From positions 32,001-96,000 of the forward strand of contig JBGPGO010000002.1 in the NCBI GenBank assembly GCA_041483895.1: a stretch of 64,000 nt of DNA, given 5' to 3'. Positions 36,001 to 39,000 of the stretch are shown in pieces. The DNA is from Fimbriimonadia bacterium (lineage in GTDB: Bacteria; Armatimonadota; Fimbriimonadia; Fimbriimonadales; JABRVX01). A program made the position numbers. How positions within the stretch are numbered: position 1 is the first letter of the stretch; each line of letters starts with the position of its first letter.

Positions 36001-39000
36001 AATCGCGGGATCGGCCGGTACCACAATAGTTATCGGTCCCGGCGAGAACCTGCCGAAGAGCTTTCGGGCCGCGGCGGGGACGGGCTGAGTCCAATAGGGC
36101 GGCTCCGGCGCGGCAGCCTGAACCGGCAGCGGGTGGGCCTCTCTCCGGCCTTTCAGAGCGCAGAGCCGCCGGCAGGCCTCTTGGTTCCGAGCGTCGCAGG
36201 CCAGCCCGAAAAGGGTCTCGTTGATGATCGCAACGATGCCGCCTTTCGTGATCTCCACAGCGGCCTCCTCGATTGCCGGCTCTCTGCCCGTCGGGTTTGG
36301 ACCCAGATCGACGATGCACATGGGGGAAGTCTATCTCTTTCTTGGGAAACGGGGACTCAAAGGCTTGCCAATGGATGGGTCCCGCGATATACTATTTGTT
36401 GAAAGGAGGCGCCAAATGAAGCCAATCATTGGCATGGCGCTGGTTTTCATCGCGGGCGTCTGCCTGGCGAAGGACGTTGGGGTCTTCGCCACAGGCCGCA
36501 TGAACGGCGCCGCCAATAACATCAAATCAGGCGCCAATGTCGCCACTTTACGGTCGATTTGGGAAGGGTACGGCGCCGCATGGAGCGAGGCCGACCTGAT
36601 AACGCCCGAATTCCTCAGCGGTGTGAAAGTGTTTTACACGGGAAACATCGCGAATATTCCATTTACCACCGCCGAGCAGGACGCCACGGTGAATTGGGTC
36701 AAGAGTGGTGGCGTTCTGGTTGTTACCGGGGAGTGTGGGTGAACGGGGAACCAAGCCGCATACAATACTATCCTGAATCGATTCGGAGTTACAATCCAGG
36801 GTACTACGTATTACGGCGATGGTCAGGTTCTGACCAATCATCCCATTACCAACGGCCTCACGACCGTCTATATCGCGAAGAACGGCTATCTGGTCGGTCC
36901 CGCGTCGGCCCTTCATCTCATTAAGGACAATGCCTCTGAGTTAGCGGCGTTGGTCATGGAGGGGACAGCCGAGGTCGGTTCGGGCAAGCTGTTTGTCATC
37001 GGTGATTCCGATATGTTCACCGAATACTACATGTCTAACTATCCTACCGGTCCGGCGATCGCCCGAAACATCGCCAAATGGGCCCTCGGATACAATCTAC
37101 TCAAGGGAAAGGTCACTCCCGCCGACTTCACTGGTGCGTTGGTCGGAATGACGCTGGACCTGGCTTTTTATCAGAACGACACATTGGCTTTCCAGGACAC
37201 CGTGCCGCTGGACGCGACCGGCAACTACGAATGTCAGCTATCCCAAGCGGGAACGTTCGACATCGTTGCCAAATGCGATCACTGGCTGTCCCGGCGGGTC
37301 AGTAACGTCGATCTCTCCGTATCGAACCCAGTGATCGACTGGGACCTAGCCGTCAATGGCGATACGGATCACAATAACGCCATCGGGCTGTATGACCTGA
37401 ACCCGCTGTTCGTGGGTTATGGTGATGCCGATCCATCGATCGATTTGGACGGAGACGGTGTGATCACTATCAAGGACATCAATCTCGTCTTTGTCAATTT
37501 CGGCATGGCCGGCGAATAACGGGCATGTGGCCCGGCGCTTTCGCGCCGGGCCATTGTTTAAATTTAGGCGACGTAGCCGAGTTCGGCCATCCGCATTGCC
37601 TTGCAGGACGTATCCATCAATCGCCAACCTTTGACTCCACCAGTTTTGCACCCTAGCAAATATCTGTAGTTACTGTTTACGACGCGTAAAATCTCGACTA
37701 GAAAGTTCGCCGCGCCTGTGATAACGTGAGGAAAACGATTCGTTCGATTTCTTTCATTAAAGGAGAGCGGATATGAAGTACTCGCTGGGCATCCTATTGC
37801 TTTTCACAACTCTCACCTGTCCGGCGACGGACGTCGGTATTTTCGATGCGAGCCGAATGAACGGGGCAGGGCTAGTCCTATCCACGGGTAGCCAGGTTTC
37901 TTCGTTTCGGGCAATTTGGCAGGATAATGGCGCTGCATGGCGGGCAACGGGTGTGTTGACTCCATCCTTCTTGGCGTCGGTAACGGTATTTGTCACCGGA
38001 CAAATCAACGCTACTGGGTTGACGGCGGCTGAACAGACGGCTCTTGTCGCGTGGGTCAATGGCGGCGGCACCTTGGTGGTGACTGGCGAGAGCGCCGGAT
38101 TGGGAAGTCAGCCGGCATATTCGACGATGCTAAATCCCTTTGGCGTCACGATCAGTGGTACGACGGCGACCGGAACAGGTTCAGTTCTCGGCGCCCATCC
38201 AATCACCCAGGGAGTGGGCGGCGTTTATATGGTAACGAACGGCCGTCTCACCGGACCGGCGTCAAGTCTACAACTCATCAATGACCCGGACGGCTACCTC
38301 GCCGGTCTTGTCATGGAGGGCACGTCTGAAGTCGGCGCCGGAAGGCTTTTCGCGTTTGGCGACTTCGATACGTTGACGAACGGACACTTGCCTCACCATT
38401 CGGACCTGCAAACGTTGGTCCGAAACATCGCTAAATGGGCGATGGCTCCGAAGAGCATATTGAAAGGCGCGGTTCTGTTAGGGAATTTCGTCGGCGATCC
38501 GACAGGCAAGACGCTGGACCTAAGCTTCCAACAGGGCGGGAACTTGATCTTTGCAGGCTCAGCCGTTCTCGATTCCCAGGGCAACTATCAGTACGCCACG
38601 ACGAATGCGGGGACGTTCGACGTTGTGGCCAAGGCCGATTGCTGGCTATCTTCCAAGATCACGGGTGTAGTCCTTGACCTCTCCACAAAGACTTTGGATT
38701 GGGATTTGCCGATCAACGGAGATGTAGACGAAAATAACGCTGTCGATTTGCTAGATTTGAACTCGATTATGGTCAATTTCGGCGAAACTGGCTCGATGGC
38801 CGATTTGGACGGAGATGGAACCGTCGGGTTGCCGGACCTAAACCTTGTGTTCTTGAACTTCGGCCTGACGGGAGAGTAGTTTTCCGGGCCCGGCGCTTTC
38901 GCGCCGGGCCAATTGCTTTTCCTTCCTCAGCGAAAATGCTTTCAGGACGGGCATTTCCGCGATATACTGCCTATCGGTACCATGGTTCGAATTGCCATTC

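Follow-up and report, generated by a model that had tools for sequence, protein, structure and literature searches.

Within the window (the whole stretch of 64,000 nucleotides of a Fimbriimonadia bacterium analysed here), two called genes, g00516 and g00517, are separated by 71 uncalled codons, and the question raised by this locus is whether they are two genes or one gene read through an in-frame TGA. When TGA was translated as selenocysteine (Sec, U), a single open reading frame of 367 aa was obtained with one TGA at codon 109 in the motif VVTGECGU, as the genome-wide survey's note had proposed, and the uncalled codons were found to extend from 36743 up to an ATG at 36956. Reading with table 11 splits the gene, the first ORF stopping at 36742 and the second beginning with a TTG at 36950. 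The coding scores given in that note were not exactly reproduced; a new dicodon model gave 0.36 over the whole downstream frame and, over 40 codons, 0.36 upstream and 0.18 downstream of the TGA. It is most likely that g00516 and g00517 together encode a single secreted, selenium-containing protein from a family not yet catalogued. The locus has the following features.

36365–36393, forward strand: sigma-70-like promoter match (10/12)
36402–36409, forward strand: Shine-Dalgarno-like AAAGGAGG, 6 nt ahead of the ATG
36416–37519, forward strand: read-through gene of 367 aa (g00516, the 71 codons and g00517)
36416–36469, forward strand: probable Sec-pathway signal peptide, aa 1–18, assigned by eye
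36470–37096, forward strand: GIFT/IFT52/DUF4350-like domain with a class I glutamine amidotransferase-like fold, aa 19–227, from the structure match to 5fms_A
36734–36742, forward strand: Cys107-Gly-Sec109, in a loop following strand 100–104, with the TGA at 36740–36742
37097–37516, forward strand: X-module and type II dockerin-like tail, aa 228–367, from structure matches to 3kcp_A and 5g5d_B
37527–37554, forward strand: intrinsic terminator-like hairpin of 12 pairs, directly 3' of the stop codon

The whole read-through gene sits between a single RBS and a single terminator. The promoter match is weak by itself, since two such sites were found against 2.4 expected in shuffled sequences, and a search of the locus with Rfam returned only sub-threshold Acido-Lenti-1 matches, which lie on terminators. 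The N-termini of 15 of 15 copies of the family combine a basic residue with a hydrophobic stretch, and Ala is conserved at column 18. The protein would be exported via this signal peptide, and the X-dockerin tail may destine it for the cell surface.

All five full-length copies that the survey's note had listed for this genome were found where it had placed them, and a search of 61 related genomes returned the same 15 full-length matches, seven with one TGA, all of them in the three genomes of family f1. In the column opposite the TGA, Gly occurs in two of these 15 copies, as had been noted, and Cys in six rather than five. Across the 21 copies with DNA, the column holds TGA in 12, Cys in seven and Gly in two (five family loci from a Fimbriimonadales MAG, with the same local protein sequence as counted copies, were left out of these counts). 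The TGA copies form four groups, kept apart by branches with good support, and Cys copies lie between them. Two paralogues follow the gene in tandem.

37773–38879, forward strand: paralogue, 49% identical, with E-S-A-G at the motif (neither Cys nor Sec) and without the distal hairpin described below
38887–38910: terminator-like hairpin of this first paralogue
38982–40097, forward strand: paralogue, 44% identical, with E-C-G-C at the motif, no hairpin although the hairpin position reads G-H-V-L-T, and an altered dockerin end

Two paralogue clades adjoin a gene that was identified by eye as a thioredoxin reductase. Besides the query, seven full-length CxC clusters were present among the best 150 database representatives. 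A degenerate-pattern search returned six loci from metagenomes, all six of them family members, and 37 loci from genomes, of which five belong to the family, 31 have no profile match and one matches at an E-value of 0.0015 with a stop just upstream. From 400 further genomes of the phylum, four weak matches were obtained (E 5e-17 to 1e-10), all without stops and none full length.

Purifying selection was found on both sides of the TGA, with dN/dS in three TGA orthologue groups of 0.05–0.08 upstream, 0.05–0.10 at codons +21 to +114 and 0.10–0.15 in the tail. Synonymous change is suppressed at codons +1 to +18 in the TGA groups (11 of 49 variable, against a rate of 0.60 elsewhere) and is not suppressed in the Cys groups (10 of 32, against 0.36), which have two sequences each and therefore less power in this test. 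Both tests concern paralogues of the window gene, since it lacks a close orthologue itself. TGA is the only stop codon one step from a Cys codon, and for this reason the constant occurrence of TGA is not discriminating by itself between Sec and a TGY to TGA nonsense mutation in pseudogenes; the low dN/dS past the TGA and its occurrence in four clades argue against the latter. An assembly error is opposed by contigs from all three DNA runs (one of which may be the source sample), which cover the TGA with zero differing letters, and a genome-wide alternative code by the termination of 533 of 1788 long coding ORFs at TGA and by a sole Trp tRNA with a CCA anticodon, so that these three readings are largely refuted. 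A single RNA contig (n = 1; 193 nt, depth 2.9, 6 differences) spans the UGA and the hairpin, and gives neither expression level nor strand.

No NCBIfam family matches the protein at E ≤ 1, in agreement with the survey, and no DUF4350, GIFT or dockerin entry occurs in the 119-family selenoprotein Table 1 of PMC13188914. The proposal that the Sec/Cys pair marks a new selenoprotein family is supported by this absence, by the TGA/Cys column, by purifying selection both before and after the TGA, and by the Sec machinery. The protein resembles the CxU families of that table (UshA-like NF041198 'PCGU', rhodanese form 3, ferredoxin-thioredoxin reductase NF041072 and Trx-like Sec.1) in its C-x-U motif, Cys orthologues and presumed redox role, its C-G-U being the motif in the name of NF041198. 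It differs from them in its unrelated fold, in lacking an NCBIfam match and in its predicted export and dockerin anchoring. The sole selenoprotein there with a class I GATase-type domain, as in the window protein, is NF004836, but its motif is another one and it was not matched by the window protein, which is GIFT-like, secreted and tailed.

The genome encodes SelA, tRNA-Sec and a UGA-containing SelD that carries its own hairpin, along with four further genes having UGA at catalytic-Cys positions (TlpA-, deiodinase-, SelL- and thioredoxin-like). Both relatives in the family have a UGA-SelD and a SelB, the latter of standard type, 630 aa long and including the wing-3 domain; the SelL- and Trx-like control genes gave no orthologue match, or one with no TGA, in these two genomes. 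SelB was not found in the assembly under study, as had been reported, when sought with TIGR00475, PF09107 and tblastn using the relatives' SelB. This negative result, and the finding that the syntenic selB neighbour is followed by other genes here, would fit a reading in which Sec is real in the family and this genome has lost selB, the UGA109 either terminating or being read through at a low level with Cys or Trp, and the gene being a recent remnant. We consider such a loss quite improbable: completeness of the assembly is 95% (43 contigs), and it retains intact copies of SelA, tRNA-Sec and the UGA-SelD, hairpin included, as well as of four or more other UGA genes. The relatives' other selB neighbour has just a 26% match here, as would be expected if a piece were missing or the gene content differed. 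For the family as a whole it is very likely that Sec is inserted at the UGA by SelA, SelB, tRNA-Sec and SelD, and our confidence that this applies to UGA109 of the window gene is only a little lower.

Still less probable than the loss of selB is a stop read-through that inserts Cys or Trp under the stimulus of RNA structure, or else a programmed split yielding proteins of 108 aa and ~187 aa. Downstream RNA structures are described in PMC7026636 as stimulating read-through in other systems, and databases do contain family pieces of 108 aa and of 218–251 aa. However, the paralogue column holds Cys and never Trp, Sec machinery genes occur in all three genomes, and the loop of the distal hairpin matches SECIS loops native to this order. 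For a split, the starts at 36950 and 36956 are without an SD sequence and one predicted domain would be cut in two.

As to the signal that would direct Sec insertion, the bSECIS consensus, as given in PMC13188914 and PMC8659212, lies immediately downstream of the UGA with 16–37 nt from the UGA to the apical loop. The survey's note had called the downstream SECIS-like hairpin weak, which holds within this canonical interval but not beyond it, where a strong TGA-specific hairpin was found at 83–84 nt, over double the upper limit of the consensus, preceded by a predicted helix.

36755–36817, forward strand: predicted spacer helix, nt 16–78 from the U of the UGA, looping out 63 nt, from folding against synonymous shuffles
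36820–36836, forward strand: distal SECIS-like hairpin of 7 bp, with a GUU loop at 36827–36829, 84 nt after the UGA, −8.3 kcal/mol

The distal hairpin is present in eight TGA copies, which represent only three independent clades (1 + 3 + 4), and in none of nine Cys/Gly copies. A strict GU-loop rule finds all 12 TGA copies (eight at 83–84 nt, four at 37–38 nt) and none of the nine Cys/Gly copies, against a background of 1.5% of 3000 coding windows, or 0.17% at 80–88 nt; the rule and the helix window were picked after the data had been seen, making the rule partly post hoc, and just four of nine control UGA genes conform to it. The published bSECIS model minus its spacing rule finds eight of eight copies at 83–84 nt and none of the nine Cys/Gly copies at 81–86 nt (background 6.2%), and this loose model matches 54% of random windows at some position. 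Free energies range from −8.3 to −9.5 kcal/mol, the GUU loop and 7 bp agree with the consensus hairpin features, and a cut at −7.5 kcal is failed by three of four proximal-type copies. The distal core is identical in three clades that are only 34–38% identical to the window protein, and two pairs of the hairpin are altered on both sides between clades, a result also reached in 53 of 500 shuffles. The motif occurs once in the genome, and G-Q-V at the hairpin column was found in none of 258 non-family domains, while one Cys protein (P0014, available as protein sequence only) also bears G-Q-V-V-T. Of the control UGA genes, seven of nine have a G-loop hairpin at 17–33 nt, the SelL- and Trx-like genes having none, and other distal hairpins, sought across the whole genome, did not exceed background (4/98 TGA, 4/202 TAG, 3/90 TAA). 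Folding of the first 60 nt after the UGA gave an MFE of −5.4 for the window gene (z +2.0 against synonymous shuffles), a test that is uninformative because it missed eight of nine controls at p < 0.05.

The spacer helix has 7.6 expected pairs against 0.6 in synonymous shuffles (p 0.008), and the folding of 36752–36838 gave a z of −2.85. It was found in all eight distal copies (p ≤ 0.017) and in none of 13 others (p ≥ 0.058). Its covariation does not reach significance (162 of 500 shuffles, three sequences), and one Cys copy (L020) has an overall equally stable fold (z −3.5). The helix finishes beside the hairpin, which by subtraction by hand would leave an effective spacing of ~18–24 nt.

We think it probable that the recoding signal is this GU-loop hairpin 84 nt downstream, the intervening helix keeping SelB domain 4 at a near-normal distance. 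The base of the ~60-nt helix would begin 14–17 nt past the U of the UGA and its end would come to lie beside the hairpin; with ~60 nt folded away in this manner, SelB domain 4 would therefore be held at roughly its normal distance. An exported selenoprotein with a distal GU-loop recoding hairpin is the best explanation of the locus overall, and we favour it with marginally less assurance than the identity of the signal itself. It is also unlikely, though conceivable, that the long proximal helix itself serves as the SECIS, being of an elongated canonical type with its apical loop at 38–44 nt, and that the distal hairpin is accessory as a second SelB site, pause or stabiliser. Consistent with this are an additional G-led apical loop that the GIDQ clade carries at 38 nt, the loop employed at 37–38 nt by the PGNQ copies, a GAGUUA apex at 43 nt in the window's helix and a peak of synonymous suppression at codons +1 to +27. 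The apices, however, vary among clades, that of the window is weak (one closing pair, 4-bp stem), the distal core is constant across three clades, and no model-conform hairpin occurs in the window gene nearer than 84 nt.

Returning to the distal hairpin as the preferred signal, it is like the canonical bSECIS of the E. coli fdhF type in its coding-region position, its 3-nt G-U-led loop closed by G-C and its 7-bp stem, and unlike it in the 83–84 nt between UGA and loop and the conserved ~60-nt helix in between. Its position may be mobile within the family, at 38 nt in one clade and 84 nt in three, which would free the residues beside Sec. We lean somewhat towards regarding it as a natural long-range bacterial SECIS, in which SelB would read a hairpin 28 codons downstream and the rule would be set by distance in space once the mRNA is folded rather than by linear spacing. 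A 2005 paper is said to have described a 3'-UTR SECIS in E. coli. This RNA element weighs more than the family itself. According to PMC13188914 a subset of genes fails the bSECIS model for reasons that are unknown, and of the BSepDB entries 87.4% have a canonical SECIS and 12.6% lack one (PMC13326102). If our reading is true, a looped-out spacer may account for part of the latter, and would give, for the non-canonical entries, an explanation open to test and a rule by which to search. For the design of recombinant selenoproteins, where the residues that follow Sec are dictated by the SECIS, it would relax the main constraint, and the family provides its own controls in its distal, proximal and Cys alleles.

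The protein itself matches DUF4350 (PF14258) at the E-value of 8e-7 reported by the survey, with 29.9 bits under a cut-off of 30.4, which the two tandem paralogues pass (30.7 and 39.7). The match to IFT52 GIFT (PF23355) is 21.8 bits, under a cut-off of 27.2, with the Cys paralogue at 27.3. By structure, the domain matches 5fms_A (IFT52) with Z 22.8 and rmsd 2.3 over 199 aligned residues, and class I GATase folds to a lesser degree (3rht Z 17.4, 1o1y Z 14.2 and others); given the fold held in common with IFT52 GIFT, it is therefore built on a GIFT-like scaffold. The IFT52 GIFT, DUF4350 and GldG-like domains (5fms, PF23355, PF14258) are its best structural match and have a motif loop of the same length, but IFT52 has G-E-G-G there, with neither Cys nor Sec. 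The loop is therefore no insertion unique to the family, although 179 of ~280 non-family rows are gapped there. Class I GATases and DJ-1 hydrolases have a Cys-His-Glu triad with its Cys at the nucleophile elbow; judged by motif position, the elbow of the window protein would fall at G105/E106 rather than C107. His at column 198 occurs in 54 non-family rows, is not among the commonest family residues and is found in none of the 15 aligned copies. The C-x-U pair could form a surface thiol/selenol redox or soft-metal site on a non-hydrolytic GATase-like scaffold, with the Cys paralogues as selenium-independent versions, a proposal that we hold to be evenly balanced. One family added to the 119 listed would be a modest gain, although an exported, dockerin-tailed protein on a GIFT-like scaffold is unusual among them.

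The C-terminal ~140 residues had been described as X-dockerin-like, and both the X-module beta-sandwich and the paired Ca-binding loop-helix fold were matched (3kcp_A Z 13.9, 5g5d_B Z 13.6; Foldseek 4u3s_B E 5e-10), with no match of this protein to the Pfam dockerin. The fold of the tail is like that of the X-module and type II dockerin dyad of Clostridium thermocellum CipA (4u3s, 5g5d, 3kcp). Unlike that dyad, it is present in ~110 copies per genome, on unrelated proteins, and tblastn with the tail gave 110 matches reaching the C-terminus in the genome studied here.

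Translation of the candidate selenoprotein gene at 36416-37519(+) agreed with the genome-wide survey's note in giving a single 367-aa read-through ORF with one TGA, at codon 109, within the motif V-V-T-G-E-C-G-U. The signals flanking it were as follows, the promoter-like and terminator-like matches belonging to pattern classes that occur at chance frequency in this region:

36365-36393, +, promoter-like match
AAAGGAGG, +, ribosome-binding site upstream of ATG 36416
37527-37554, +, strong terminator-like hairpin

No SD-like sequence was found ahead of the downstream restart codons, and contigs from all three DNA runs covering the TGA (one of which may be the source sample) had no differing letter there; the runs bearing the window are sediment metagenomes. 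TGA is still an ordinary stop codon in the genome under study (G000): 533 of 1788 long coding ORFs end in it, and ARAGORN identified one tRNA-Trp (CCA) and one tRNA-SeC (UCA).

Five full-length copies are present in G000, three of them in tandem within the window, and the three genomes of its family (f1) carry 15 full-length matches among the 61 related genomes searched, both numbers being those that the survey had counted. One further genome of the 61, the unpublished G036 from outside f1, has a shorter homolog from which the motif is absent and which supplies one of the 16 rows of profile A2. Scanning metagenomes with a pattern contributed six more loci, with TGA in five and Cys in one. Of the 21 copies with DNA, 12 have TGA in the motif column, 7 have Cys and 2 have Gly, and the Cys two residues ahead, previously described as kept wherever the column is U or C, was kept in 19/19 such copies. 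A domain search against 1.84 billion representatives gave 3045 matches, and the best 150 included seven full-length C-x-C clusters besides the query and six proteins that terminate at C-x, four of these being new lineages known from protein only. The remaining domain matches are mostly surface proteins without the Cys pair, many of them giant and with up to eight repeats, and named records bearing the motif come from one Fimbriimonadales MAG. As 400 additional genomes of the phylum yielded only four weak partial matches, proteins with the C-x-U/C motif are rare.

The TGA copies fall into four groups of a 36-row tree, kept apart by well-supported branches and with Cys/Gly copies between them, so exchange between Sec and Cys has happened repeatedly, possibly in either direction. 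In three TGA orthologue groups dN/dS was 0.05-0.08 upstream of the TGA, 0.05-0.10 over codons +21..+114 and 0.10-0.15 in the tail, with Cys groups similar; such low values on either side of the TGA exclude decay to pseudogenes. G000 encodes SelA, tRNA-Sec and a SelD that itself contains a UGA, and has TGA at the catalytic Cys of TlpA-, deiodinase-, SelL- and thioredoxin-like genes. SelB, already reported missing, went undetected by TIGR00475, PF09107 and tblastn in this 95% complete assembly; the relatives G001 and G002 each have a normal 630-aa SelB and a UGA-SelD, and the more probable explanation is a gap in the assembly. None of the 119 selenoprotein families in Table 1 of PMC13188914 is DUF4350, GIFT, dockerin or Armatimonadota. 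A PyrG-type amidotransferase selenoprotein is described in PMC12013277, and is unrelated to the window protein by NCBIfam. We are highly confident that this is a real, uncatalogued selenoprotein family, its novelty having been judged without the supplementary family list of PMC13326102, which could bear on it.

The survey's note had called the SECIS weak, and the window gene indeed has no usable hairpin in the first 60 nt after the UGA. At synonymous sites of codons +1..+18, 11/49 were variable in the TGA groups compared with 0.60 elsewhere (by group 5/15, 5/16 and 1/18; p 0.0095, 0.055 and 1e-6), and Cys groups showed no such suppression (10/32 variable vs. 0.36). Folding further out identified the following:

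36820-36836, +, distal hairpin of 7 bp with a GUU loop, 84 nt after the UGA

This hairpin is encoded by G-Q-V-L-T, with the minority Gly codon GGT (12% of Gly codons), and its motif occurs once in the genome. The same core was found at 83-84 nt in 3/3 copies of the GIDQ clade and 4/4 of the HGST clade, two TGA-bearing clades of paralogues which together with the window gene make up the eight distal copies. The four copies of a further such clade, PGNQ, lack the distal core; in its place a GU-loop hairpin lies at 37-38 nt (proximal). Neither hairpin occurs in any of nine Cys/Gly copies, among which is the tandem Cys paralogue despite its encoding G-H-V-L-T. The GU-loop rule, which was formulated post hoc with the data already seen, is satisfied by 1.5% of 3000 coding windows (0.17% at 80-88 nt), by about 2-4% of synonymous recodings of the distal copies and by just 4/9 control UGA genes. 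As a less biased check, the published bSECIS model was coded minus its spacing term; it matched 8/8 distal copies at 83-84 nt and, within 81-86 nt, 0/9 Cys/Gly copies (the closest hairpins lie at 77 and 79 nt). Its background was 6.2% at the distal position and 54% anywhere, and its energy cut was failed by 3/4 proximal copies. At the base of the distal hairpin two pairs are altered on both sides between clades and 93.8% of cells are paired, the covariation score being reached by 1/500 shuffles and the both-sides pair count by 53/500. Its loop style is that of the native SECIS elements of the order (GGU, GUC, GUG, GUU and GGC, at 17-33 nt).

In 8/8 distal copies nt 14-26 after the UGA pair with nt 66-80 (6.8-8.7 expected pairs, compared with 0.1-0.9 in 120 synonymous shuffles per copy, p<=0.017, in a pairing window chosen post hoc), and this spacer helix was seen in 0/4 proximal and 0/9 Cys/Gly copies. 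The folding z of the region in the window gene is -2.85. The register of the helix shifts by one base between clades, and its within-clade covariation was not significant. The actual SECIS could instead be the long helix's apex, 38-44 nt after the UGA, and the GIDQ clade does have a model-conform loop at 38 nt. We lean towards a distal, looped-out SECIS, probably a new form of the bacterial element; the evidence comes to three independent clades. When the looped-out helix is subtracted by hand, the effective spacing becomes 21 nt in the window gene, 18 in GIDQ, 23-24 in HGST and 20 in PGNQ (where an 18-nt first hairpin was subtracted), near the 17-23 nt of single-hairpin controls. A ribosome at the UGA covers about 12-15 nt of mRNA; the spacer helix would begin just outside a ribosome so positioned, and SelB on the adjoining hairpin would be held at its usual place. 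In a 2005 study with engineered constructs in E. coli, a SECIS reportedly functioned when located in the 3'-UTR, short spacing still being required. In the literature, bSECIS spacing is 16-37 nt with some genes departing from the model (PMC13188914), and a canonical SECIS is present in 87.4% of entries (PMC13326102). A literature search, mostly at abstract level and with few subscription papers, turned up neither this family nor a natural bacterial SECIS in a distal position (further sources: PMC8659212, PMC7026636, PMC13449736, PMC3541580, PMC9582644).

Among other UGA genes of G000, neither the SelL-related gene (C26:7332) nor the thioredoxin-like gene (C25:39655) has a conforming hairpin at 16-37 nt. 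The former, for which an orthologue was looked for and not found, has, at 66 nt, a hairpin that fits the model and is a possible second distal-SECIS case. A second selenoprotein family absent from the catalogues appears to be represented by C3:161849-163081 (L036/L112; TGA at 162077), a secreted-looking protein of ~410 aa with the motif H-P-L-G-C-T-U and no Pfam or NCBIfam match; of its 23 matches, which come from 15/41 genomes of the order and include two from G036, 21 have one TGA, and a canonical SECIS-like hairpin lies at about 23 nt in 6/6 loci checked. A candidate lineage-specific selenoprotein is the membrane/coiled-coil protein on C22 (L039/L118; TGA at 7146, -), with the motif G-G-U-E-G-C and, at 22 nt, a strong hairpin with a GUU loop; none of its 24 homologs in the order has an internal stop.

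In an AlphaFold model of the window protein with Cys substituted for Sec (pLDDT 96), residues 19-227 match the IFT52 GIFT domain (Z 22.8, rmsd 2.3, 199 aligned) and also OST48/Wbp1, ThuA-like and class I GATase domains, and residues 228-367 match the CipA X-dockerin dyad (Z 13.6-13.9), a tail with about 110 occurrences in G000. C107-G-U109 sits in an 8-residue loop leading from strand to helix, which would by motif position lie just beyond the GATase nucleophile. Many distant relatives have His at a column where the family does not, so a full GATase-type triad appears unlikely. We therefore favor, over a hydrolase, a thiol/selenol redox or soft-metal site at the surface, and give this role roughly an even chance. 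Other selenoprotein families are also listed with a C-x-U motif (PMC13188914), and a gene resembling thioredoxin reductase by eye adjoins two paralogue clades (L012:141-1346, L013, L024:18-959); other copies, as happens in the window, adjoin a PhyH gene.

Relatives of the GIFT-like domain are a large surface-domain family without a name. P0002, P0003, P0006 and P0009 are giants of 3500-3750 aa with eight tandem domains and no Cys pair, and many smaller relatives have the domain ahead of C-terminal sorting-like tails. With 16 residues inserted in its dockerin and the last helix missing, the third tandem paralogue (38982-40097) may have a degenerate anchor. Terminators of the first two paralogues (37530-37553, 38887-38910) are an identical 24-nt GC-rich hairpin, possibly a repeated element, with a below-threshold match to Rfam Acido-Lenti-1. 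Elsewhere in the window, a 1313-aa WD40-repeat protein (24760-28701, -), caspase-like by eye in its C-terminal part, is encoded beside an integrase-like fragment and tRNA-Lys (28830-29142).
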